This document shows, piece by piece, positions 1,569-44,431 of a stretch of 64,000 nucleotides of DNA. This DNA is from Betaproteobacteria bacterium (GTDB lineage Bacteria > Pseudomonadota > Gammaproteobacteria > Burkholderiales > SG8-41), in NCBI GenBank assembly GCA_016192825.1, contig JACPTK010000025.1:3912-67911 (forward strand), read 5' to 3'. Position numbers and translations under genes: made by a program. The first letter of the stretch is position 1; every line of letters starts with the position of its first letter. The notes below the pieces were generated by a model. That model was not told the origin of the DNA, made no database searches, and worked only from the letters and a program-made list of their open reading frames with translations.

Positions 1569-2873
<1,305 letters not shown>

Positions 2874-6846: not shown

Positions 6847-7443
6847 TCAGACTGCGCGATGCTTGCCGATTTTCCAGCCGTGCGCGGCGATGTGCTTCTC
6901 CGCGACTTCGGCCGGCTCTTCCTCGAGCGGCGTCGCCATCGTGTCGTTGAACCGGTTCATGAAGCCGAAATAGGCGATCAATGCCACGATTTCCACGATT
7001 TCGCCTTCGGACCAATGCTGCTTCATCCGGGTGAACAGCTCGTCGGTGACGTCGTTGGGCTGTGATGCGGCCGCGATCGCGAATTCGAGCGCCACGCGCT
7101 CGCGCTCGTCGAACAGCGGGCTCGACCTGAACTCCCAGACCGCCTCGAGCTTTTCTTCCTTGATGCCAGACCGGAGCGACCCTCCGGCATTGTGGGCCAT
7201 TCAGTAATGGCATCCGTGAGTGCGCGCGGCGACATAGGCCAGCAGGCGCTTGAAGCCCACGCCGACCTCTCCCTGGGGATCGAACACGGCGCCGTTCAGC
7301 GCGCGCACGGCCCGCAGGATCTTCGGCTTGCGCTGGAGGATGAGCTGGCTGTTGGGTATGTAGTGGCCGGAAGCCCTGATCTGCTCGAACATGTCGTTCA
7401 GTTCGGGTACCGAGCCAACCGGCAACGGCGCGAGGCGGGTCAT
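6847..7443 (-). CDS. AhpD/carboxymuconolactone-decarboxylase (CMD)-like protein with in-frame TGA read as selenocysteine (CxxU), copy A
   Basis: ORFs 7201..7443 and 6847..7200 are in the same frame, separated only by the TGA at 7201-7203. The joined sequence reads '...ARTHGCHY-U-MAHNAGG...'. The 198-residue product aligns end to end with the Cys paralogue at 38125..38721 ('AAGCRY-C-TAHNAEN'). The RBS is AAGGA. A hairpin lies downstream of the TGA. Confidence 0.85.
7163..7190 (-). promoter_or_regulatory. Candidate bacterial SECIS hairpin for CMD-like copy A
   Basis: The mRNA reads UGA AUGGCCCACA AUGCC-GGAG GGUCG CUCC-GG UCU GGCAU. The core stem is CCGGAG/CUCCGG with apical loop GGUCG. The loop begins 19 nt after the UGA. 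Confidence 0.6.
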
Positions 7444-7470: not shown

Positions 7471-8712
7471 TCATGTCTTGCGGCGCTCGTGCCGGGACTC
7501 GGCGAGACCGTCCGCCACGAACCGCGGAACGAGGCTCAGCCTGCCGAGCGGCTTGAGCGACTCGTCATCGCTTTTCAGGCAGATATCCCGGATCGCCAGG
7601 AATGCCCTCGCCGCGGCCGTCTCGCGCCAGAACCAGTTCTCGATGGCCTTCGCCGCGAGATTCCCCGGTTGCGCCGCGACGGCCTCGTAGTAGTACGCCT
7701 TGACGTCGTCGCATGCTCGTTTCACGGCCAACCCGGCAGACAACCCGGCAACGGGCGGTGGCCTGGTCGCGCCATCGAGACAGGATGCGACATACCGCGC
7801 GGCCTCCTCTACCGTCGCCCCGAACACGCCCACGGTCGTGCGTCCCCGCCGTTTTCGTGCAAGGTCGTACCACGGTGCCAGCCGGGCAATTTCTTCGCGC
7901 AGGGCGTGGGCAAGCCCGCCCGCCTCCGCCTTCATGGAAGCGAAGCTGACGGGGCATGCGAAACCGCTCTCCTGGTCACCCGACGCCGGAGCATCCTCCG
8001 GAAAATCCTCCAGCACCGGACCTGCGGAGCGCTCGAACAGCGACAGCAGGGCACTCAAGACCCTGCGCTGGAATTGCGGCTCGTTCGGCGCCCCGAACGG
8101 CCGCCCGAGCATGAACGGCACCCACAGCGCCCGGGGCGGCTTGATGGCCGCGGTCTGTTCCCGGATCAGGCTGATCTGGGCCGTCGGAACGCCCTCCCGC
8201 TCGATGTAGTGGCCGAGTGCGCCCACGGCGCACGTGCAGTTGGGTCAGACAGGGGTCAGCAACACCGCGTCGACGCGATCCTTCTTGAGCAGCGCGGCGA
8301 GTTCCCGGGCCTTGGGCTCGAGCGCGCGGATCGGGGCGGCCCCCATGAACGCATAGTGAAAATCCGAAACCGCTCCGATCGCGCCGTCGGCCTTGAGCTC
8401 CCGCAGTCGCCCGAGCGGAAACACGACGTTAATATCTTCCTGGAAGCCGCTGCGATCGAAGTTGACCGACGAGTGGCTCATGATCAGGTCGCCGGCGGGC
8501 GTTTCCCCGGGAATGACACGGTAGTCCGTCGCCCCGATCTCGAACGGCCGGTCGCCGCGCACGTGCACCCCCGACGTCGTGACGATGGCCACGCGGCGAT
8601 CGCGCAGCAGCGGTCCCGCCGCGAAGGGCGTCCCGCCGAAGTCGGGCAGGTCCCGGATCTTGTCCAGGTGGTGCTTTTGCTCGGATGCGGAAAAATCGGT
8701 CAATCGGGCCAT
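7471..8712 (-). CDS. GrdB/PrdB-family (glycine/sarcosine/betaine/proline reductase component B-like) protein with in-frame TGA read as selenocysteine
   Basis: ORFs 8245..8712 and 7471..8226 are in frame. Between them the sequence reads 'LLTPV-U-PNCTCAVGALGHY', with the TGA at 8245-8247. The combined product is 413 residues. The N-terminal part 'SGVHVRGDRPFE...DINVVFPLGRLRELKADGAIG' and the C-terminal part 'EREGVPTAQISLIRE' resemble the selenoprotein B family. Confidence 0.8.
8217..8233 (-). promoter_or_regulatory. Candidate SECIS hairpin for the GrdB-like gene
   Basis: The mRNA reads UGA CCCAACUGCAC GUGCGCC GUG GGCGCAC. The 7-bp perfect stem starts 12 nt after the UGA. The loop contains GU. 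Confidence 0.6.
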
Positions 8713-9399: not shown

Positions 9400-9927
9400 C
9401 TACGCTTCACCGCGCGCCGGGTAGTTCTTGGAAACGACAAAATCGATCGCGCTCAGGATTTCGTTGAAGTGCGGCCGGGCAAACGGCATCGTCGAATACG
9501 ACGCCCAGTATAGTGTCGCGTCCGGCTTGACCAGGAACAGTCCCGGCTCGGCGAACAGCGGCGGCTCCTCGATCCCTGCCGAGGTCATGCCGCGGCCGGT
9601 GGAAACGTACAGCCCCCACTGGCGCGCGGATTCGATCGAAACACCGTAGCCGACCGTCAGATTCGGCAAGCCCCACTGCGTCTTCGCCTGCTCGGCACGC
9701 TCCTTTACATCCGTGCTGGTGACGAGCGTGGACACGCCGCGCTTGTCGAACTCCCCGATCAGGCCGTTCAGTTCGCTCGTGTACTTGCGGCACACCGGGC
9801 AGTGCAGGCCGCGGTAGAAAACAATCATTGAAAAGTTCTGCGGTTTCTGGGCGAAAAGCTTCCAGCGTCCGCCGCCGAGGGTTTCCACTTCGAGCGCGGG
9901 AACAGATTTACGGGGCATGAGCGACAT
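9400..9927 (-). CDS. Peroxiredoxin-like (AhpC/TSA-family, thioredoxin-fold) protein
   Basis: 175-aa ORF with 'FYRGLHCPVCRKY' (CxxC in a redoxin context). It lies 29 nt upstream of CMD-like copy B on the same strand. Confidence 0.75.
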   Translation of the reverse strand: MSLMPRKSVPALEVETLGGGRWKLFAQKPQNFSMIVFYRGLHCPVCRKYTSELNGLIGEFDKRGVSTLVTSTDVKERAEQAKTQWGLPNLTVGYGVSIESARQWGLYVSTGRGMTSAGIEEPPLFAEPGLFLVKPDATLYWASYSTMPFARPHFNEILSAIDFVVSKNYPARGEA

Positions 9928-12077: not shown

Positions 12078-14555
12078 ATGAATCTCCCGACGGCCTATCA
12101 GCCCATCGCGTGTGTGGGGACCCTGACGGCCTGCCTTGTTCTGGCTCTAAGCAGCATTAACGCGCCTGCGGCGAAACCTCCAGCGGAAAAGGAGTCGAAT
12201 CGGGAAGCGCGGGGCAGCCTGGCTCATTCGAACCGGTTGATCCATTCGAATTCGCCCTACCTGCTCAGCCATGCCCACAATCCGGTCGACTGGTATCCGT
12301 GGGGGCCGGAGGCTCTCGAAAAAGCCAAACGCGAAAACAAGCTGATTTTCCTCTCCGTCGGCTACAGCACCTGCTACTGGTGCCATGTGGCCGAGAGAAC
12401 GATTTATTCAAAGCCCGAATTCGCAAGATGGATGAATGCGTGGTTCGTCAATATCAAGGTGGACCGCGAACAGCGGCCCGACCTGGACCGCATCTACATG
12501 CTGGCAACCCAGATCATGACCGGCCGCGGCGGCTGGCCGAACAACCTGTTTCTGACACCCGACCTGAGGCCGGTGTTCGCCGGCAGCTACTTCCCACCGC
12601 ACGACGATGACTTCGGAAGAACTGGATTTTCCACGATACTCAGGACGCTGCATCAAACCTGGACCACTGATCGAAAGCGCCTGACCGATATCGGGGAACG
12701 GGTCCACGCTTCGTTACGGGATTACCAGCAGCGAAGCACGAGCGGCACGCAGCGCGCATTGAATCCGGGCGAATGGCTCACCGCGGCGGCGACATCGTTA
12801 ATAGCCCGCGCCGACAGAAAACATGGAGGCCTCGCGTCGAGCGGTTCCACGAAGTTCCCGCGCGCACCCGCGCTCGAGCTGCTGCTCGCGCACTACCGGA
12901 TTCACCGCGACCGCGCGTCGTTGGATCTGCTCACTCAGCACCTGGACGCCATGGCGTATGGCGGAATCTACGATCATCTCGCCGGCGGATTTCACCGGTA
13001 CACCGTCGAGCCGAGCTGGTCCATCCCACACTTCGAGAAGATGCTGTACGACAACGCCCAGCTGATGAAAATCTACGCCGAAGCGTTTGCCATCACGAGG
13101 AATCCGCTGTATCGGTTCGTCGCGGAGGACGTGGCCGCCTATTTGGCCCGACAAATGATGGCCGGTGGCGGCGGCTTCTACACCGCGCAGGACTCCGAGG
13201 TAAAGGGCAAGGAAGGTGCCAGCTATGTCTGGACCCGGACGGAGATCGTTTCGATCCTGCGCGGCAAGTCAGCCGAACGGTTTTTCGATATTTTCGCGCT
13301 CACGCCCATGCCGGCGAACGTCGTCGCGGAGAGTCTCGAGACGAAGCCGTCAGCGGAAGAAGAAGGCGTGATCCGGTTCCGGCTGCCGGTCGCGGAAACC
13401 CTCAAGCGGGCGCGATCTGCGGACGTCGTGACGCTGCTGGCCGGCACGCGGCCCCTGCGGCAGGAGCTCCTCCTGGCGCGCGACCGGCGTCCCCAGCCTC
13501 TGCGCGACGACAAGATCATCGTGGGGCTCAACGGTCTCGCCATCGAAGCGTTCACCGAGGCGGGGCGCATTCTCGGCAACCAAGAGTACATCTCGATCGC
13601 CCGGCGTTCCGCGGAATACATCTGGGCGGTCGCCTATAGCGCCAAGTCCGAAAGCCTCAAGCACGAAATCTTCCAGGGGCGCGTGCAGACCGACGGATTT
13701 CTCGACGATTACGCCCTACTCGGTCGCGCTTACATCTCGCTGTACGGCGCCACGCGGCAGCAGGTGTGGCTCGACCGCGCAGTGAAGCTTGGCGATACGC
13801 TGTTGAAACGATTCGCGCGGCCCGACGGGGCGCTACTGACGAGCACGAGCGGAAAAGACCTGCTGATCACGCCGCTGGACGACGGGGACAATGCCCAGCC
13901 GTCCGGAACGTCCGCAGCCGTCGAACTCCTGCTCCGTCTCGCGAAGACCGGCGGCAAGACGGGATACGCCGAGGCCGCCGCGAAAATCGTGCAGCGCCTG
14001 GGCGGGCAACTAGACGCCCAGCCGCACGGGTGGAGCACCCTCGTGGTTGCGGCGAACGCGAACAAGTTTGAGCCCTCGATTGCTGCGTTGGGTGGACCTG
14101 GCTCCGCGAGCGTCCAAGCGGGCGGACTGCCGGACTTTCGTCCCCCGGTTACCGCCGATCACGTAAGGGTCCGCGCGACCGCCAGCTCAGCGGACGACTT
14201 TTATCGGATCGAGATCACGCTCGATATCGACCGCGGATATCACGTCAACGCCAATCCTGCGTCGTTTCCCTACCTGGTTCCCACCAACGTGTCGCTCGAC
14301 GGAATCACGCCGATTTCAGTCGATTACCCCAGGCCGATAACGTTCAAGCCCAATTTCGCGCGCGACGGCATCAAGGTGTATGAGGGGAAGCCGACGATCG
14401 CGGTAAGGGTCGCAAAGAAAGAGCTCCCGAAGACAGGAAGTCTGCGAGCGAGGGTAACCGCCCAAGCGTGCGACGACCAGGTTTGCCTGCCGCCGTCCGA
14501 GTTTCCTTTGAGCATCGATCCGCCGGACGCGCGCACGGGCGCGGCCCTCAAATGA
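12078..14555 (+). CDS. Thioredoxin-domain (DUF255/YyaL-like) protein with a C-terminal DsbD-N-like domain
   Basis: 825-aa ORF with a signal peptide. It has '[37 protein letters not shown]' followed by a six-hairpin-glycosidase-like middle region. The C-terminus '[15 protein letters not shown]' is typical of the DsbD alpha domain. Confidence 0.8.
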
Positions 14556-15234
14556 CGGGCACACCGACCTGGCACCTGATCGCGGCGTGCCAGGCCTCCA
14601 CATCGAAACCGGGCGAACCGACGATCGTGCGATAAACAACGACGCCGTTCTCGTCGAGCAGGTAGAGCCGGTCCGGCAGCGCGGCGTACAGGCGGTCCAC
14701 CTCGTTCGACATGTTGTCCAGCAGCATCGGCATCCTGAGATTCAGGCGAAGCACGCAGACCTGCGCGATCTCCTCCCGCCCCTCGAGCGATTTCGGCTGT
14801 TCGTAAAGCACATTGTCGACCAGATTTCGCGCCGACTGCCGTCCGTCCGTCGGATGCGCCTCCTGAATGTAAACGCAATAAAACTGAACGCGGTTCCGGA
14901 ATTCCTCGTATATCTCGTTCAGGCGCACGGCCTGCTCCCGGAACGGCGGTCACGTGTACGAGCCAAAGACCAGGGCGACGGGTTTCCCACGCGTTGACGA
15001 CAGCCGGAATTTTTCTCCCGATCGCTTGCCCGCGGGCGTCAGGCGATCGATCTCGAAATCGGGAGCGGACTGCCCTACCTGCGGCGCGGCATGGTCGCGC
15101 GCCGCCCGTTCGCTGACCATCGATTCGTAGTACGCGAGGTATTCCTCCCGGCTGCGCCCCATTCGCTCCCATCGATCCGGCGAAAGCGTGTCGGGATGCG
15201 CGTACGAGGTTCCAAGCCAGCCCAGGTTCGTCAT
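14548..15234 (-). CDS. Iodothyronine-deiodinase-like thioredoxin-fold protein with in-frame TGA read as selenocysteine
   Basis: ORFs 14950..15333 and 14548..14928 are in frame. The junction reads '[22 protein letters not shown]', with the TGA at 14950-14952. GS.TUPPF is the deiodinase active-site signature. The start ATG at 15234 has an AAGGAG RBS. Confidence 0.82.
14920..14934 (-). promoter_or_regulatory. Candidate SECIS hairpin for the deiodinase-like gene
   Basis: The mRNA reads UGA CCGCCGUUCCGGGAG CAGGC CGUGC GCCUG. It has a 5-bp stem and a GU-containing loop that begins 21 nt after the UGA. Confidence 0.5.
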
Positions 15235-15506
15235 GCAATGCTCCTTCTGAGGTTGCCGGTTGCGTGCTGCGAGCCGCAAGTCTCGCCACCGGCGGCAATC
15301 CGACACGCCGCTCGCGGCCCGCAGGTGGCACAAGCATAGAGCGGCCCGGGCAGGATTGACAACCCTGCAAGGGCCCGGACGGCACCGGCTGGCGTCAGTC
15401 AGTCCGCAGATGAATACTTACGCGCGCGGCACCAGGAACCGTAATAGCGTGCGTTCGGGCGCGACTATTGAGAACGGGTTCACGCGGGAACGCAGAAGGA
15501 GAATCG

Positions 15507-16733
15507 ATGCCAAGCCAGAGAATCACCTTTGCCGGCGCAAACGGCGCAGATCTCGCCGCGCGCATGGACCTGCCGTTGGGGAAGGCGCGCGCCTACGCCA
15601 TTTTCGCGCACTGCTTTACCTGCTCGAAGGACACCAGGGCCGCGAATTACGTGAGCGCCGCCCTCGCCGAGCAGGGAATCTCCACGCTGCGTTTCGACTT
15701 TACCGGCCTGGGCGGCAGCGGCGGAGACTTTGCCAACACGAATTTCTCGTCCAACGTTGCGGACCTCGTCGCCGCGGCCGAGTACCTGCGCGCCAACCAC
15801 GGCGCACCCGAAATCCTCATTGGGCACAGCCTGGGCGGGGCCGCCGTGCTCGCGGCTGCGCCAAGGATCGCGGACGCGCGCGCCGTCGCCACCCTCAACG
15901 CGCCCTTCGATCCGGCGCACGTGCTCGACATGATCGCGGGGACGCGCGCGGAAATCGAGGCGACGGGCGAAGCCGAGGTGACGCTCGGGGGGCGCCTCTT
16001 CCGCATCAAGAAGCAGTTCATCGAGGATATCGAGCAGCACCGGCTCACCGGGGAAATAAGGCGGATGAAAAAAGCGCTCCTGGTAATGCACGCGCCGCTC
16101 GACTCGACCGTCAATATCGACAATGCCGCGCAGATTTTTCTTGCGGCGCGGCATCCGAAGAGCTTCGTGTCGCTTGATGGAGCGGATCATTTGCTCTCGC
16201 GCCGCGACGACGCGGTGTACGCAGGCTCGGTGCTGGCCGCCTGGGCCGCGCGCTACATCTCGCGCCCCCTGTCGGACGCAGCGGATTTGCCGCGGGCGGC
16301 ACCCGGAGAGGTGGTCGTCGTGGAAGCCGGGACCGGGAAGTTCGAGCAGACGATCAGCGCGGGACGCCACCGGCTGCGGGCGGACGAGCCCGTTACGGCG
16401 GGTGGCAACGACAGCGGACCATCGCCCTACGATCTGCTGCTGGCCGGCCTTGGCGCGTGCACTTCCATGACCCTCCGCATGTATGCGGCGCAGAAGCAGT
16501 GGCCGCTGGCCGGCGTATCCGTGAAGCTCTCGCATGCCAAGGTCCACGCCCAGGACTGCGCCGAGTGCGATACCCGGACGGGAAAGATCGATCGCATCGA
16601 GCGCGAGATCACCCTCCAGGGCGACCTGGGTGCCGCTCAGCGCGAAAAACTTCTGCAAATTGCCGACAAGTGTCCAGTCCATCGCACGCTGACTTCGGAA
16701 GTCCGGATCGCAACGCGGCTGTCCGACGTTTGA
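15507..16733 (+). CDS. Bifunctional alpha/beta hydrolase / OsmC-family protein
   Basis: The N-terminal half has the 'GHSLGG' nucleophile elbow. The C-terminal half has 'PSPYDLLLAGLGACTSMTL...CPVHRTL' (OsmC/Ohr fold). A GAAGGAG RBS precedes the ATG at 15507. Confidence 0.8.
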   Translation: MPSQRITFAGANGADLAARMDLPLGKARAYAIFAHCFTCSKDTRAANYVSAALAEQGISTLRFDFTGLGGSGGDFANTNFSSNVADLVAAAEYLRANHGAPEILIGHSLGGAAVLAAAPRIADARAVATLNAPFDPAHVLDMIAGTRAEIEATGEAEVTLGGRLFRIKKQFIEDIEQHRLTGEIRRMKKALLVMHAPLDSTVNIDNAAQIFLAARHPKSFVSLDGADHLLSRRDDAVYAGSVLAAWAARYISRPLSDAADLPRAAPGEVVVVEAGTGKFEQTISAGRHRLRADEPVTAGGNDSGPSPYDLLLAGLGACTSMTLRMYAAQKQWPLAGVSVKLSHAKVHAQDCAECDTRTGKIDRIEREITLQGDLGAAQREKLLQIADKCPVHRTLTSEVRIATRLSDV

Positions 16734-17309: not shown

Positions 17310-19574
17310 CTAACGCAATATCATCAGTGGTGCGAGCCGCTCACTCCGAGGCAGCACCCGGCCGACGATCGCGGCGGCGGGATAACCCAGGGCCTTCAGC
17401 TCCGCCACGCAGGCGGCAGCCCGGTCCCCCGGCACCGCCGCCAGGAGCCCGCCGGCCGTCTGCGGGTCGAACAGCAGCGGAAAGCGGGGATCGGTCATGA
17501 CGCTTTCAAGATTTTCAACGGCTCTTCGCAAGCGGACGTTCTGGGGCTGCAGCGAGCTGAAAATTCCCGCCGCGACCATGTCGAGCGCGCCATCGAGAAA
17601 AGGAATGGCGTTCAGGTCCAGGGCAATGTCCACGTCCGACTGCCTGATCATCTCCACCAGATGACCGATGAGGCCGAATCCGGTGACATCAGTGCAGGCG
17701 CTGGCCCGAAACCGGTGCAGGCAGCGCGCCGCCTCGCGGGAGGAGAGCAGCATGCTGTCGAGGGCGGCCTCGATCCACCGCCCTTTTGCCTTGTGACGCA
17801 TGGCGGCGGCGAACAGCGTGCCGGTCCCGACGGGCTTGGTGAGGAGCAACGTGTCTCGCGGCGCCATGGGACCTTTGCGCAGGAGATCTTTCTCCGCGGC
17901 CGTCCCGTTGATCGCGAAACCCAGCCCCAGCTCGGCCCCCTCGCCGGTATGTCCACCCACCAGCGCGGCGCCAGCGCCATCCAGAATGCGCAAGGCGCCG
18001 GACATCATCTGGAACAGGTCGTCTTCCATTTTCGTTTCGAGGCCGTAGGGCACGGTGGCTATCGCCAGCGCCGTCTGCGGCTCGGCGCCCATGGCGAAGA
18101 TATCACCGAGGCTGTGGTTGGCCGCGATCTGTCCGAAAAGGTAGGGATCGTCGATCATGGTCCGAAAAAAATCGACTGTGTGGACCATGACCCTGCCCTC
18201 GGGCACGCGAACGACGGCGGCGTCATCGGGCGCGTCCAGGCCGATGAGGACGTCCTTGGAAGCGCCGGGACGCAGGCGCCCGATCACGCGCGAAAGCACG
18301 GTGTGGCCCACCTTGGCGCCGCATCCTCCGCAACGGCTCGCCATGACCGAGAGTTCCTTGAGCGCCTCGGGCCCCGCCAGTCCGGGCGCCGGCGCCGCCG
18401 CCGGGGCTTCCGCCATCTCCGGGAGGTCGCCAAACTGCTTCATGAAGCGGCGGTCGATCCAGTCCTTGAGCCGCCACACGGCCGCGCCTTCCATGGCCCA
18501 GCCCCAGCGCGAGGCGACGGCACGGCGGTCGCCGACGGAAATCAGCGACAGGAAATGCTTCTGGGGCCTGAAGGGCAGCGGCGGCTGGCCGAGCAGGACC
18601 CGGCGCAGGTTCTCGGCGAGCGGCTGGCCCTGGCGAACCGCGAACACGCCCGCCTTGGGACGAGGATGCCCTGCCACGCTGGCGACGTCCCCCGCGGCGA
18701 ACACGGCGGGGTCCGTCACGCTCTGCAGCGTGTCGCGAACCCGGACAAAGCCGCTGTCGTCGCACTCGAGTCCGGTTGTCCGCAACCACGGAGCCGCCCC
18801 CGCCTGGGTCACCCACAGGACCTCGTCGAAAGGCATTTCCTCTCCGTCCGCGCACAACAATCGTCCGGATTTCACTTCGATGACTTCGCGGTCGGTGTAA
18901 ACGTCCACGCCCCGTTCCTTGAGTAGGCGCATCAGGATGCGACGGGCACCGGAGGCGTAGGCTGGAAGGATCTTCCCCATCGTTACCAGCCCGACGTTCA
19001 CCAGGCCGGGATCGCGCCCCGCCGCCGCAACCTCTTTCCGTAACCGGTACTGGACGGCGAACGCGAGTTCCACCCCGGCGGCGCCGCCGCCCACCACGCC
19101 CACCCGGGTGGGACCCACCCGCTGCAATACGCGCGCCACCAGCTGCTCCCAGCGCCCGATCAGGCGATCGATGGGCTTCACTCCCGTGGCGTAGAGCGAT
19201 GCCCCCGGCACATCGTCCTGCCGCGGCCGCGACCCGATATCGATGGACGCTACGTCGTAGCGCACCGCGGGCCGGCCGGAGCACAGCACTTGTTTCGCGC
19301 CGAGATCGAGGCCCGTGGCCTCATCGTGATAGAGCCGCGCGCCGGCGAAGCCGGCCAGCCGGCGCAGGTCGATATGACACTGCCCGCGGCTGTAGTGGCC
19401 GGAGACGAAACCGGGCAACATCCCCGAGTACGGCGCGTCGATGTCGCGGGTGACGAGCGTCAGCCGTACCCCGGGCATCGGCCGCATGCCGAAGCGCTTG
19501 AGGACCAGAACGTGAGCGTGGCCGCCGCCGACCAGCACCAGGTCCTTGATGACGGGGCCGGCATTCGAATTCAT
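17310..19574 (-). CDS. selD: Fusion of a pyridine-nucleotide-disulfide oxidoreductase (TIGR03169 'N-terminal to SelD' type) with selenide, water dikinase SelD
   Basis: 754-aa product. The N-terminal part has 'DLVLVGGGHAHVLVLK...GAAGVELAF...AGDVA' (NDH-2-like flavoprotein). The C-terminal part has 'CGGCGAKVG...DAAVVR...VDFFRTMIDDPYLFGQIAANHSLGDIFAMGA...GGHT' (SelD/AIR-synthase fold, Cys form). The ATG at 19574 overlaps the upstream stop (ATGA). Confidence 0.9.
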   Translation of the reverse strand: MNSNAGPVIKDLVLVGGGHAHVLVLKRFGMRPMPGVRLTLVTRDIDAPYSGMLPGFVSGHYSRGQCHIDLRRLAGFAGARLYHDEATGLDLGAKQVLCSGRPAVRYDVASIDIGSRPRQDDVPGASLYATGVKPIDRLIGRWEQLVARVLQRVGPTRVGVVGGGAAGVELAFAVQYRLRKEVAAAGRDPGLVNVGLVTMGKILPAYASGARRILMRLLKERGVDVYTDREVIEVKSGRLLCADGEEMPFDEVLWVTQAGAAPWLRTTGLECDDSGFVRVRDTLQSVTDPAVFAAGDVASVAGHPRPKAGVFAVRQGQPLAENLRRVLLGQPPLPFRPQKHFLSLISVGDRRAVASRWGWAMEGAAVWRLKDWIDRRFMKQFGDLPEMAEAPAAAPAPGLAGPEALKELSVMASRCGGCGAKVGHTVLSRVIGRLRPGASKDVLIGLDAPDDAAVVRVPEGRVMVHTVDFFRTMIDDPYLFGQIAANHSLGDIFAMGAEPQTALAIATVPYGLETKMEDDLFQMMSGALRILDGAGAALVGGHTGEGAELGLGFAINGTAAEKDLLRKGPMAPRDTLLLTKPVGTGTLFAAAMRHKAKGRWIEAALDSMLLSSREAARCLHRFRASACTDVTGFGLIGHLVEMIRQSDVDIALDLNAIPFLDGALDMVAAGIFSSLQPQNVRLRRAVENLESVMTDPRFPLLFDPQTAGGLLAAVPGDRAAACVAELKALGYPAAAIVGRVLPRSERLAPLMILR

Positions 19575-20311
19575 GGCGCGCGCTCGACGCGCACGGCGGA
19601 GAAATACGCCACGCTTTGCCCGCCGGTCGCGTCGGTATCGCAGAACAAGGCAATCTCCTGGAGACTCGCGCCATACGGGTTTCCCCAATGCTTGCGATAA
19701 AGCACCCGCAGATCGACCTTTTCGTCGTGCCAGCGCCCGGCATTCTCGTCTCCGCCGCGCGCCACGTAGTGTGGAAACGGGCTGCGTCCCCAGAACGACT
19801 CGAGATATTTCCAGTCTCCCGCCCGCAGTTTGCGATTGCCCCATATGATCTCCAGGGCGTGCGTTTCCCCGCCGGCCGAGCGGAACTTGAGATACAGTCG
19901 CGCGGGATGGTCGTCGCCGGCCCTAGTGGTCTCGTCGATGCCGCTGGCGACCGGCCGCTCCACGAACCAGTCCCAGCCGAGGATCGGGTAGCGGTCGAGA
20001 GGAAGGTCCGTGTATCGGTAGAGCATCGAACCGCTGTTGTTCGTGGCCAGCCGGATCGCGGACCGGCCTTCCTTCGGCACGAAGCTGATCTGCATCGGAT
20101 CGGTGCGGAAAAACCGGCGGTGATGCCAGCCGTCGGGCAGCGGATCGAGCGCCAGCGGATTGCGAAAATCCATCACGGCGACCGACGGCGATCCGTCCGG
20201 CACCAGCACGTTGACGCGCTGCCCGGCGGTGCACGCGGCGAGCGCGGCGGCAAGAAATGCGACGCCGACGATGCGAGCCAGCGCGCCCTTGCCGCGCCTA
20301 CTCCGATTCAT
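19571..20311 (-). CDS. DUF3047-family lipoprotein/secreted protein
   Basis: The leader has a lipobox-like 'FLAAALAACTAG'. The body has 'YPILGWDWFVERP...DDHPARLYLKF...ALEIIWGN'. It is translationally coupled to the selD fusion. Confidence 0.65.
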   Translation of the reverse strand: MNRSRRGKGALARIVGVAFLAAALAACTAGQRVNVLVPDGSPSVAVMDFRNPLALDPLPDGWHHRRFFRTDPMQISFVPKEGRSAIRLATNNSGSMLYRYTDLPLDRYPILGWDWFVERPVASGIDETTRAGDDHPARLYLKFRSAGGETHALEIIWGNRKLRAGDWKYLESFWGRSPFPHYVARGGDENAGRWHDEKVDLRVLYRKHWGNPYGASLQEIALFCDTDATGGQSVAYFSAVRVERAP

Positions 20312-20503: not shown

Positions 20504-20842
20504 TCACTTTCCGGATTCGTTTACATCCATTATCTTGCCGCTGCCTGGATAGACCCAATCCTGGCGCCGGCTCATCAGGGCCCGTAAATCCATCCGGATT
20601 TCCTCCGCCGTCGGCCGCCCCACGAACCACCAGCCGTTATAGATCTTGTAGATCGTTCGATCTCGGTCGAGAACGAACGTGTAGGGAATGTAGATTTCCC
20701 CATGCGCCTTGTCCGTTGTATCGACCATTTCCAGTTCGTGAAGCAGCTTGCGGTCGGGGTCCATCAGGAATGGCCAGTCGGCGCCCAACGCGTCCCGGAC
20801 CTCGCTCGTGTTCATCTTGTCGTCCACGGACACGCTGACCAT
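20504..20842 (-). pseudogene. Redoxin/peroxiredoxin-like protein, C-terminal two-thirds only
   Basis: It starts within the conserved '...VSVSVDD' strand. It continues 'WPFLMDPDRKLLHELEMV...YTFVLDRDRTIYKIYNG'. The N-terminal ~60 residues with the catalytic Cys are absent, and the upstream frame is non-coding. Confidence 0.5.
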
Positions 20843-20887
20843 CTTGCAATAATTTACGCGGAATGCTGGACCGCAGTGTTGACAAAG

Positions 20888-21070
20888 TTGTCAGCGCAGC
20901 GAGCTTCGGCTGCTGCGGCGTGCCGCGGCGGATGCTGACGGCCTGCTCGTCGGTCAATCCGGCCTTCTTGCCAAGGAGGGTGTGCGCGGCGAGGCAATAG
21001 TTGCAGCCATGGATGTATTGAGCGGCATATTGCGGTCCGTGCACCTGGGCGGCGGCGTCTATTTCCGTTG
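20888..21070 (-). pseudogene. CMD/AhpD-like gene fragment (Cys form)
   Basis: 'YIHGCNYCLAAHTLLGKKAGLTDEQAVSIRRGTPQQPKLAAL' carries the CxxC..H motif. It lacks both ends and abuts other remnants. Confidence 0.45.
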
Positions 21071-21400
21071 CGAATTCGATCGCGACCACCCGCATCCGCT
21101 GGTGGCCGCCTTGCCTTCCCTGATCCATATCCGCGGCACCGACAGTCACGATTTCGCCTGGCTGCAGACCGCAATCCATTTCATGATCAAAGAAACCAGG
21201 ACGGCGAAGCCGGGGGCTGAGGCAGTCGTCAATCGCCTGGCGGAAGTGCTGTTCGTTCAAATGGTGCGAGCCCACATCGCGCAAATCGCCGGCACGGGAC
21301 CCGGCGCTTATCGCCGCGATCCCTCGCGTTTGCTGGTGAAGTCCGATCCGCGCAAGAGTTCCGGGCAAGACGCAGTTCATGCGCCCTATCGCTTCGGACC
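21009..21400 (+). pseudogene. AraC-family regulator N-terminal (cupin-type) remnant
   Basis: It has 'MDVLSGILRSVHLGGGVYFRCEF' and 'VVNRLAEVLFVQMVRAHI', typical of AraC_binding_2-type regulators. The cupin core is shortened and no intact HTH domain follows. Confidence 0.45.
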
Positions 21401-21610
21401 GATACCAGGCTGTAATGAAAACATCGCGGCACCGACTTATCAGAGCGTGCAAGGTCAGAGGGCAGCTCATGTAGGACGTAAGGTTTCGGTCGTTGCGCTG
21501 GTCTATTGCCGTACAGGCGGGAACAAAGACGGCGCGAAGTGAGCAATATGCCCGCTGGTCGTTTGCCGAATTTCAGTGATGTAAATATTTTCTTCTTAAA
21601 GGAGATAGTC

Positions 21611-42283: not shown

Positions 42284-44431
42284 GTGACGAAGAGCAGGCT
42301 CGCGCTGGTCGCCGCGCTCGTAGTGCTGATCGCGGCGTTCTTCGCCGCCGGCGGCCACCGTTACCTCACCTTCGAGGGCATCAAGGCGCAGCAGGCGGCG
42401 ATCGAGGCCTATTACCAGGCGCACCCGTGGCGCACCGCCCTGGGTTACTTCCTCGCCTACGTCGCCGTCACCGGACTCTCGCTGCCGGGCGCGGCGGTCA
42501 TGACGCTCGCCGGCGGCGCCGTTTTCGGGCTGCTATGGGGCACCGTGATCGTCTCGTTCGCGTCCAGCATCGGCGCGACGCTCGCGTTTCTGGCCTCCCG
42601 GTTCGTGTTGCGCGACTGGGTGCAAAGCCGGTTCAGTCGCAACCTGCGCGCCCTGAACGACGGCGTCGCGAAAGAAGGCGCCTTCTACCTCTTCACGCTG
42701 CGGTTGATTCCCGCGATCCCCTTCTTCGCCATCAACCTCGCGATGGGACTCACGCCGATCCGCGCCTGGACCTTTTACGGGGTGAGCCAGGCGGGGATGC
42801 TCGCCGGCACCCTCGTCTACGTGAACGCCGGCACGCAGCTCGCCGCGATCGAGTCGCCGTCGGGCATCCTCTCGCCGGGGCTGATCGGCGCTTTCCTGCT
42901 GCTCGGCTTCTTTCCGCTGGTCGCGAAGCGGATCGTGGACATCGTCAAGACGCGCAAGGTTTACGCGCGGTGGAAGCGGCCCGTCCGCTTCGACCGCAAC
43001 CTGGTCGTGATCGGCGCCGGCTCCGCCGGCCTCGTGTCGGCTTATATCGCCGCCGCCGTGAAGGCGAAGGTCACCCTGGTCGAGAAGCACCGGATGGGCG
43101 GCGATTGCCTCAACACGGGCTGCGTGCCCTCCAAGGCACTCATCAAGTCGGCGCGGCTGCTCGCCCAGATCCGGCGCGCGCAGGAGTTCGGGATCAAGTC
43201 GGCAAACGCGGAGTTCGATTTTGCCGACGTGATGGAGCGGGTGCAGCGGGTGATCAGGACCGTGGAGCCGCACGACTCGGTGGAGCGCTATACCAGCCTC
43301 GGCGTGGAATGTCTCCAGGGCGAGGCGAAGATCACCTCGCCGTGGACTGTAGAAGTCACGACCGCCGGCAGCACACGCACGCTCACCACGCGCGCCATCG
43401 TGATCGCGGCCGGCGCCCGCCCCTTCGTGCCGCCCATACCCGGCATCGAGGATGTGGGCTATGTGACCTCCGACACGGTATGGGGGCTGCGGCAGCTGCC
43501 GAAACGGCTGGTCGTTCTGGGTGGCGGCCCCATAGGCTGCGAGCTTACGCAATGCTTCGCGCGCTTCGGCTCGCAAGTCACCCAGGTCGAGATGCTCCCG
43601 CGCATCCTGATCCGCGAGGATCCCGAGATCTCACGGATGGTGGCGGACCGCTTCCAGGCGGAGGGCATCAACGTCCTCGTCAACCACAAGGCCAAGGCGT
43701 TCCGGATTGAGAACGGCGAGAAGGTTCTCATCGCCGAGCATGACGGGCGCGACGTGCGTATCCCCTTCGACGAGCTGCTGTGCGCGGTGGGGCGCATGCC
43801 CAACACGCGGGGATTTGGCCTGGAAGAGTTGGGCATCCCCGTAACCCGGATGAAGACCGTCGAGACCAACGAGTACCTCCAGACGATCTACCCCAACATT
43901 TACGCCTGCGGCGACGTCGCGGGGCCGTACCAGTTCACCCATACCGCCTCCCACCAGGCGTGGTATGCGGCGGTGAACGCCTTGTTCGGCCGCTTCTGGA
44001 AGTTCAAGGCCGATTACTCGGTCATTCCATGGGCGACCTTCACCGAGCCGGAAGTTGCCCGCGTCGGGCTCAACGAGATCGAAGCGAAGGAAAAGAACAT
44101 TCCGTACGAGGTCACGACCTACGGCATCGACGACCTCGACCGGGCGATTGCCGACGGGGAGGCTCACGGGGTCGTCAAGGTCCTCACGGTGCCGGGCAAG
44201 GACAAGGTGCTCGGGGTGACCATCGCTGGTGAACATGCCGGCGATCTGATCGTCGAATACATTGTAGCCATGCGTTATGGAATCGGGTTGAACAAGATCC
44301 TCGGCGCGATCCATATCTACCCGACGCTCGCCGAGGCCAACAAGTACGCGGCGGGTGCCTGGAAGAAGGCGCATGCCCCGGAAGGGTTGTTGCGCCAGGT
44401 GGAACGTCTCCACGCGTGGATGCGCGGCTGA
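42284..44431 (+). CDS. Fusion of a TVP38/TMEM64 (DedA-like) membrane domain with a mercuric-reductase-like FAD-dependent disulfide oxidoreductase
   Basis: The N-terminal TM region has 'PGAAVMTLAGGAVFG'. This is followed by 'VVIGAGSAGLVSAY...GGDCLNTGCVPSK' and a dimerisation domain. The GTG start has a GAGGAG RBS. Confidence 0.85.
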   Translation: MTKSRLALVAALVVLIAAFFAAGGHRYLTFEGIKAQQAAIEAYYQAHPWRTALGYFLAYVAVTGLSLPGAAVMTLAGGAVFGLLWGTVIVSFASSIGATLAFLASRFVLRDWVQSRFSRNLRALNDGVAKEGAFYLFTLRLIPAIPFFAINLAMGLTPIRAWTFYGVSQAGMLAGTLVYVNAGTQLAAIESPSGILSPGLIGAFLLLGFFPLVAKRIVDIVKTRKVYARWKRPVRFDRNLVVIGAGSAGLVSAYIAAAVKAKVTLVEKHRMGGDCLNTGCVPSKALIKSARLLAQIRRAQEFGIKSANAEFDFADVMERVQRVIRTVEPHDSVERYTSLGVECLQGEAKITSPWTVEVTTAGSTRTLTTRAIVIAAGARPFVPPIPGIEDVGYVTSDTVWGLRQLPKRLVVLGGGPIGCELTQCFARFGSQVTQVEMLPRILIREDPEISRMVADRFQAEGINVLVNHKAKAFRIENGEKVLIAEHDGRDVRIPFDELLCAVGRMPNTRGFGLEELGIPVTRMKTVETNEYLQTIYPNIYACGDVAGPYQFTHTASHQAWYAAVNALFGRFWKFKADYSVIPWATFTEPEVARVGLNEIEAKEKNIPYEVTTYGIDDLDRAIADGEAHGVVKVLTVPGKDKVLGVTIAGEHAGDLIVEYIVAMRYGIGLNKILGAIHIYPTLAEANKYAAGAWKKAHAPEGLLRQVERLHAWMRG

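Follow-up and report, generated by a model that had tools for sequence, protein, structure and literature searches.

The window analysed here, 64,000 nucleotides (nt) of contig JACPTK010000025.1 from a betaproteobacterium, carries on its minus strand a gene for a deiodinase-like protein with an in-frame UGA codon at position 95. Taken jointly, it is very probable that the two halves flanking this codon form one gene, that UGA95 is decoded as selenocysteine (Sec, U), and that the product would work through a catalytic cycle in which Sec95 is paired with a second conserved residue, Cys160. This reading is carried by the conservation of the UGA codon across bacterial phyla, by a covarying hairpin downstream of it and by the continuous match of the protein to the deiodinase family.

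A single gene read through a UGA codon

The predicted gene and its local signals are as follows.

15234..14548, minus strand: coding sequence of the deiodinase-like predicted selenoprotein, 228 codons including Sec95; stop codon TGA at 14550-14548
14952-14950, minus strand: in-frame UGA, predicted Sec95, in the motif G-S-Y-T-U-P-P-F-R; TGA in the same column in 74 of 79 related loci
15246-15241, minus strand: Shine-Dalgarno sequence AAGGAG, 6 nt 5' of the ATG, as read from the sequence
15362..15333, minus strand: promoter-like TTGTCA-18-TATGCT, ~100 nt upstream of the ATG, a consensus match alone (one site found in the region versus 0.2 expected from shuffles)

The frame from the ATG at 15234-15232 to the TGA at 14550-14548 contains a single internal stop codon, the TGA at 14952-14950. 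In a mechanical list of open reading frames (ORFs) the two halves appear separately, as 14950..15333 and 14548..14928. The first-pass annotation, made from the sequence of the window, had noticed that these ORFs are in frame across the TGA, that an AAGGAG ribosome-binding site precedes an ATG at 15234 and that the junction has the deiodinase signature G-S-x-T-U-P-P-F. All three observations hold: there is one gene of 228 codons, the ribosome-binding sequence lies where the list above places it, and read-through gives G-S-Y-T-U-P-P-F at residues 91-98. The start codon is backed by the closest locus, L001, from a groundwater Betaproteobacteria metagenome-assembled genome, which matches residues 1-227 with 77% protein identity. 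An N-terminal hydrophobic segment is absent from the translation, and the two ORFs together are predicted to encode a soluble cytoplasmic protein of 228 residues in the PF00837 family.

The alternative is that the TGA is a true stop, in which case the region would hold a pseudogene or two small genes, and the hairpin described below would be a coincidence of GC-rich coding sequence (GC content is 64% over the window). This is how gene callers and public annotations treat the gene, splitting it into products of ~94 and ~126 residues. Both the deiodinase-like gene and the DUF255 gene that converges on it terminate in TGA, and UGA is therefore an ordinary stop codon in this organism. The terminal UGA of the deiodinase-like gene is without a hairpin resembling a selenocysteine insertion sequence (SECIS).

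Conservation of the UGA codon among relatives

Relatives were collected by scanning one genome per GTDB species, which gave at least 599 loci, the best 80 of which were analysed. These 80 belong to Alpha- and Betaproteobacteria, Myxococcota, Chloroflexota, Acidobacteriota, Planctomycetota and others. In 79 related loci the predicted Sec column holds TGA (74 loci), TGC (three) or TGT (two). Against a true stop, then, stand an identical TGA codon in 74 loci from six phyla or more, Cys in the other five, and clear purifying selection on both halves; conservation of the TGA at the column assigned to Sec exceeds chance by far.

A protein search gave ~100 clusters of fragments of 125-135 residues, all starting just past the TGA, together with full-length proteins of ~215-240 residues that have C, W or A at the Sec column. 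The 'W' protein checked at the DNA level (L090) has a TGA codon here, and the Trp appears because that codon was read under another genetic code. The 'A' protein of L089 has GCG. Orthologues with Sec or Cys, on whose presence among close relatives the first-pass call depended, are found both as the 74 TGA and five Cys codons of the GTDB loci and as 147 Cys95 forms among 263 tabulated database proteins of the wider family. In a profile search (E <= 1e-30) this family comes to 642 clusters at 50% identity, of which many are multidomain, and Cys forms are common among the clusters. The idea that the family is overwhelmingly of the Sec type was rejected, the ratio of 74:5 being limited to the nearest 80 loci and Cys forms being common beyond them. 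In a plasmid collection no close relative was found; the matches there comprised TlpA proteins and, from Mycolicibacterium, a single 'deiodinase-like protein' at 24% identity.

The Sec-type relatives in public databases (P0005-P0120; L081-L088) are nearly all recorded as two 'hypothetical proteins' of ~94 and ~126 residues, with an artificial GTG or ATG assigned as start of the second, at ...(M/V)RLNEIY, and in a few the UGA is translated as Trp. The gene in the window thus illustrates the routine mis-annotation of such genes as fragments.

A covarying hairpin downstream of the UGA

14934..14920, minus strand: putative core bacterial SECIS, CAGGC-CGUGC-GCCUG, 5-bp stem, with covariation among relatives

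The stem begins 16 nt and the loop 21 nt after the UGA, the hairpin spanning 16-30 nt downstream within the coding sequence, and an invariant loop G is the 22nd nt after the UGA. A 5-bp hairpin with a GU-containing loop 21 nt after the UGA had already been pointed out and tentatively offered as a SECIS; the distance given is that of the loop, CGUGC, and the guess is right, with covariation among relatives in its support. The window and 57 loci were aligned, gapless, over 42 nt from the UGA, giving 54 distinct sequences. Among these, columns 19-23 and 29-33 are paired in 99.3% of cells. The outer pair occurs as CG (30 sequences), AU (14), GC (5), UG (3) and UA (1), and double-sided, compensatory changes are seen in three pairs, the two besides the outer pair switching from GC to UA or AU. 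In some of these switches two amino acids change jointly, Gln...Leu becoming either His...Met or, with another Leu codon, Lys...Leu. Covariation scores 0.376 versus 0.12 for shuffled alignments, and none of 500 shuffles reached 0.376; when the partners were slid against each other as a control, pairing fell to 13-49%. The loop among relatives is C-G-U/G-G-C, with the G invariant. In acidobacterial and deltaproteobacterial members a 7-bp hairpin takes its place, shifted 5 nt upstream, and its loop, GGU or GGC, is equally far from the UGA. At the SECIS position of the five Cys forms the hairpin is absent. Compensatory changes and loss in Cys forms both speak against a hairpin that arose by coincidence, and hairpin 14934..14920 is supported as a bacterial SECIS. 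This covariation-backed assignment, including the concerted changes of two amino acids, goes slightly beyond the published predictions for the family.

Folding of the region as a single sequence (64% GC) gives a z-score of -0.68, and 46 of 200 shuffles fold equally well, which lends the true-stop alternative some weight. Since the single-sequence fold is not significant, the evidence for the hairpin is comparative and not thermodynamic. A lower stem is tentative: 14943-14939 could pair with 14917-14912 (columns 10-14 and 36-41), where 58% of cells are paired and one pair at synonymous sites covaries. An Rfam scan of the whole window at gathering thresholds returned a tRNA-Cys alone and no SECIS family.

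Selenium use in the window

Three further genes in the window bear on selenium metabolism.

19844..17310, minus strand: SelD fused to an N-terminal pyridine-nucleotide-disulfide oxidoreductase domain (TIGR00476 and TIGR03169)
8712..7471, minus strand, TGA at 8245-8247: probable PrdB/GrdB-like selenoprotein with the motif T-P-V-U-P-N-C (PF07355, 32.7 bits)
7443..6847, minus strand, TGA at 7201-7203: probable AhpD/YciW-like selenoprotein with the motif C-H-Y-U (CMD domain PF02627, 41 bits)

The SelD gene lies 2 kb from the deiodinase-like gene and scores well above the model cut-offs (TIGR00476 selD 290 bits, cut-off 125; TIGR03169 491 bits, cut-off 310). SelD is the selenium donor for Sec synthesis, and its presence shows that the organism uses selenium. 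The other two genes came from a screen for in-frame TGAs flanked by coding sequence of high GC content at third codon positions, which gave these two further split genes of known selenoprotein families. With C in place of U, both products exceed Pfam cut-offs, and both genes have 7-bp hairpins with GU-containing loops 11-13 nt past the UGA. The PrdB/GrdB-like gene immediately precedes the AhpD-like gene and shares its frame and orientation. Its hairpin is GUGCGCC-GUG-GGCGCAC, 11 nt after the UGA; the product scores 103 bits on TIGR04483 PrdB, under the cut-off of that model. The AhpD/YciW-like gene has the loop GGUCG after its UGA, and its product reaches 90 bits on NF053654, 'YciW-related (seleno)protein'. 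These split genes are probable selenoprotein genes, and together the SelD gene and the three selenoprotein genes make up a ~13-kb cluster related to selenium.

No gene for SelA or SelB was found in the 64-kb window by Pfam scans of large ORFs, and no tRNA-Sec by Rfam or ARAGORN, which counts for a true stop and against Sec decoding. An ARAGORN prediction of a 95-nt 'tRNA-Ala' at 2165..2259 (plus strand) was considered as a tRNA-Sec; it lies within the ribBA ORF (1569..2873, minus strand; DHBP synthase and GTP cyclohydrolase II), has no Rfam support and is probably spurious. Set against this are SelD and two further probable selenoprotein genes within the same window. Together with the codon conservation and the covarying hairpin, they leave the true-stop explanation highly improbable, and the comparative data effectively refute it in favour of a predicted Sec at UGA95.

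A member of the deiodinase-like family

With Cys in place of U, the whole protein scores 78.7 bits on the Pfam model T4_deiodinase (PF00837) against a cut-off of 27, and the part after U alone scores 54.9 bits. AhpC-TSA (PF00578; 44.8 bits, cut-off 26) and Redoxin score lower. The best sequence match in the PDB is mouse Dio3 (4TR3, E 1.6e-15, query residues 54-213), followed by mouse Dio2 (9H48, E 4.4e-10), and both HMMER alignments are continuous across the Sec position. Thus the deiodinase-like identity put forward in the first-pass annotation stands for both halves, and the thioredoxin-fold alignment, on whose continuation beyond U that call had been made to depend, runs through the C-terminal half. 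The Y-I-x-E-A-H-P-x-D-G-W motif is found at residues 122-132, the replacement of the final Trp by Arg being its sole deviation, and the spacing of +27 between the active site and Y-I-x-E-A-H-P-x-D-G is identical to that of mouse Dio3.

A structure was modelled with AlphaFold from a 33-sequence alignment, not for the window protein but for the Cys homologue P0070 (predicted local distance difference test score, pLDDT, 88.6; predicted template-modelling score, pTM, 0.82). The top Foldseek matches to this model are Dio2 (9H48, template-modelling score, TM, 0.81) and Dio3 (4TR3, TM 0.77), at 26-28% identity; the next are ResA, TlpA and DsbE, and then the 1-Cys peroxiredoxin AhpE. On the NCBIfam model NF038285, 'deiodinase family protein', the window protein scores 156.7 bits, under the 250-bit cut-off, and matches profile positions 173-335 only (E 1e-45). 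Its catalytic domain is like that of this 347-position model (deiodinase_rel), whereas the N-terminal region of ~170 positions is absent.

Zhang, Fomenko & Gladyshev predicted the family in 2005, under the name 'deiodinase-like protein', from four Sec and six Cys sequences of the Sargasso Sea selenoproteome with a bacterial SECIS, and proposed for it a redox function outside thyroid hormone metabolism (PMC1088965). It was met again in the Global Ocean Sampling data in 2008, with 22 Sec and 21 Cys sequences (PMC2398784), and the reviews of prokaryotic selenoproteomes of 2022 and 2026 place it among those with functions largely unknown (PMC13188914). These sources agree with the earlier remark that bacterial deiodinase-like proteins had been predicted computationally and that their function is unknown. 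The family, which Pfam and NCBIfam both cover, has been known for ~20 years; the gene described here is a new member of it, and the predicted protein belongs to the selenoprotein family first described in 2005.

The likeness to published members lies in PF00837 homology, in a UGA aligned with Cys in homologues, in solubility and in a SECIS just past the UGA whose small apical loop contains a G. There are also differences. The reviews give the motif as 'UxxC', whereas the window protein and 79 relatives have U-P-P-F and no Cys at +3. The soil and groundwater betaproteobacterial clade to which the window protein belongs, moreover, has Arg or Gln for the otherwise conserved Trp132, and the near-universal Cys160, with its loss where Sec95 is lost, is absent from the published accounts consulted in the comparison. 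The gene therefore adds a well-supported member to an orphan selenoprotein family, with small additions in the covariation-backed SECIS, the coupling of Sec95 and Cys160, the clade-specific change of Trp to Arg and the selenoprotein cluster in the window.

Catalytic residues and a proposed cycle

The HMMER alignments served to map residues onto mouse Dio3 and Dio2, with roles taken from the literature (PMC11592359, PMC9141512). The following are retained (window protein = Dio3); across 79 Sec forms Ser92, Thr94, Tyr122, Glu125 and His127 do not vary, and the list as a whole varies little or not at all.

Ser92 = Ser167
Thr94 = Thr169
Sec95 = Sec170
Tyr122 = Tyr197
Glu125 = Glu200
His127 = His202
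Arg189 = Arg260

The bacterial protein thus shares with vertebrate DIO1-3 the thioredoxin/peroxiredoxin fold with the Dio insertion, the G-S-x-T-U-P-P-F motif and its +27 spacing, the Ser/Thr/Tyr/Glu/His network and the equivalent of Arg260. It differs from them in having no N-terminal membrane anchor, in an identity of ~26-28%, in a SECIS that lies inside the coding sequence and not in the 3' untranslated region, and in its other conserved Cys. The thyronine-binding residues differ as well: the carboxylate clamp Arg275 (or Lys) corresponds to a variable position, Val205 in the window protein, the gate Phe258 to an invariant Pro187, and His219 to Pro147. The proximal Cys168 of Dio3 is replaced by Tyr93. 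As the thyronine-binding residues and the membrane anchor are absent and the catalytic network is kept, the protein would be a deiodinase-type catalyst without the thyronine-binding apparatus. The absence of the vertebrate substrate-binding residues beside an intact catalytic network is likewise slightly beyond the published predictions.

Cys160 lies on alpha2, the helix after the Dio insertion, and 78 of 79 Sec forms have it. Among the 263 database proteins it occurs in all 97 TGA-truncated entries, in six of eight 'W' entries and in 106 of 147 Cys95 forms, and in none of seven with Ala95 or Ser95. This distribution suggests a Sec95-Cys160 redox pair with a selenenylsulfide as recycling intermediate, by analogy with atypical 2-Cys peroxiredoxins. 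The coupling, too, goes slightly beyond the published predictions and yields a testable catalytic cycle.

The hairpin 16-30 nt past the UGA would recruit SelB with Sec-tRNA. In the proposed cycle, judging from conserved residues and the vertebrate enzymes, Sec95 would act as the nucleophile from the start of helix alpha1 of the thioredoxin/peroxiredoxin fold. Ser92, Thr94, Tyr122, Glu125 and His127 would supply a proton, and Arg189 would correspond to the arginine of peroxiredoxins. Cys160 would resolve the oxidised selenium (Se-X or Se-OH) to the selenenylsulfide, which would then be reduced by a cellular thiol system.

The seven Ala95/Ser95 members (L089 1216-1887, which is P0002; P0003, P0004, P0158, P0179, P0228 and P0240) are all without Cys160 and keep the Ser/Thr/Tyr/Glu/His set. 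L089, the sole one of them examined at the DNA level, has no SECIS hairpin. These members may be non-redox derivatives of the enzyme.

Substrate readings and gene neighbourhood

The neighbourhood in the window is rich in thiol and peroxide genes, which enter the discussion of the substrate: the AhpD-like selenoprotein gene described above and the following.

12078..14555, plus strand: DUF255/Thioredox_DsbH protein of 825 residues, convergent with the deiodinase-like gene, tail-to-tail with an 8-nt overlap
15468..16733, plus strand: alpha/beta-hydrolase-OsmC fusion (C-terminal OsmC), divergent from the deiodinase-like gene
9400..9927: AhpC/TSA gene
20637..21470: CMD protein

The first-pass annotation had described the DUF255 gene as convergent, with an 8-nt overlap, and its product as secreted. 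The two genes indeed share positions 14548-14555, and the N-terminus is hydrophobic and signal-peptide-like, as judged by eye from the sequence. After it come a thioredoxin domain, a middle region resembling six-hairpin glycosidases and, at the C-terminus, a DsbD_N domain. Only L001 repeats the pairing, the genes there being 1.7 kb apart on the same strand. Beyond small clades no conserved gene neighbours were found across loci, either by tblastn of the window's neighbouring genes against the 80 loci or by all-against-all clustering of ORFs within 4.5 kb. The hydrolase-OsmC fusion gives a weak match, 54.8 bits and below cut-off, to an 'OsmC-related (seleno)protein' model.

The protein may remove halogen reductively, in the manner of Dio, from a small halogenated phenolic compound, a reading that we hold tentatively and with somewhat less than even confidence. 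Dehalogenation is favoured because the invariant, family-defining feature is the Dio insertion with its proton network. Thyroid hormone would not be the substrate, since the protein has neither the thyronine clamp nor the membrane anchor. A number of points tell against the overall explanation, from Sec decoding to substrate. The solvent-exposed relay His219 of Dio3 is replaced by Pro147, with Pro in 97% of Sec forms; Trp207 of Dio3 is Arg132 in the window protein, with Arg or Gln in ~50 close clusters and Trp elsewhere; and the distal Cys239 corresponds to Met168, Cys160 not being aligned with it. No dehalogenation-related neighbour was seen in any locus. The neighbouring AhpC/TSA, AhpD-like, OsmC-fusion and CMD genes fit peroxide or thiol stress at least as well as dehalogenation. 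Furthermore, no experimental study of any bacterial member was found in the literature.

It is conceivable, if doubtful, that deiodinase-like proteins as a whole are widespread thiol-recycled Sec enzymes of aerobic soil, groundwater and marine bacteria which cleave carbon-halogen and, by analogy, carbon-mercury bonds through a Sec95-Cys160 cycle, without corrinoid or flavin, and that they were the source of the animal deiodinases. If the protein were a dehalogenase, bacterial organohalogen chemistry would be linked to the origin of thyroid-hormone metabolism.

The main rival to dehalogenation is a peroxidase of the same fold, in which Sec95 would reduce H2O2 or organic hydroperoxides, passing to a selenenic acid that Cys160 resolves and that thioredoxin or glutaredoxin recycles. 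We consider this possible but on the whole unlikely. The protein resembles peroxiredoxins (AhpC/TSA, AhpE), as it does TlpA and ResA, in fold, in an N-terminal A-P-x-F module (here the peroxiredoxin-like A-P-D-F), in a nucleophile at the start of helix alpha1, in a conserved Arg and in the plausibility of a distant resolving Cys. Its PF00578 score above cut-off, the conservation of the A-P-D-F module, of Ser92 at -3 and of Arg189, and the presence of AhpE among the structural matches to the P0070 model are all consistent with such an activity, and the Sec95/Cys160 coupling suits a cycle of the atypical 2-Cys peroxiredoxin type. The gene neighbours in the window point the same way, as do the genes adjoining the deiodinase-like gene in L019 (AhpC) and L086 (CMD); these redox neighbours, however, are not conserved across loci. 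Moreover, PF00837 scores better than PF00578, the Pro of PxxxT is out of register, and the protein has Thr at -1 and Ser at -3 instead of PxxxTxxC, no CxxC and an identity of 16-22% to peroxiredoxins, TlpA and ResA. The invariant Dio insertion Y-I-x-E-A-H-P-x-D-G with its Glu/His/Tyr network is absent from ordinary peroxiredoxins and would be needless for a plain peroxidase.

A further alternative, which we regard as improbable, is a thiol-disulfide (selenol-thiol) oxidoreductase similar to TlpA, ResA or DsbE, acting on a protein or low-molecular-weight disulfide, with a possible link to metal or metalloid stress. ResA, TlpA and DsbE are the structural matches right after Dio2 and Dio3, and the NCBIfam ResA model gives a weak match. 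The invariant Pro187 where Dio3 has Phe258 occupies what we take to be the cis-proline site of the thioredoxin fold. The protein has no CxxC or UxxC, however, its sequence being U-P-P-F, and its predicted location is the cytoplasm, while TlpA and ResA are found outside it. A link to metal stress would fit loci L081, L082-L085, L019 and L086, where the gene is flanked by DedA/VTT genes and by mer operons or MerA-like reductases; set against this, mer operons are mobile, and such adjacency is confined to ~3 lineages among ~85 loci, the neighbours of other relatives being unrelated. Dehalogenation thus remains the tentatively preferred reading.

In the loci concerned, the deiodinase-like gene adjoins a mer operon (MerR, MerT, MerP, MerA, MerC) and DedA/VTT genes in L081 (12349-15577), L082-L085 and L019 (200-2994), and in L086 (2579-4186) genes for CMD and for a MerA-like flavoprotein. 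The window itself encodes, at 42284..44431 and 27 kb away from the deiodinase-like gene, a VTT domain fused to a MerA-like pyridine-nucleotide-disulfide oxidoreductase.

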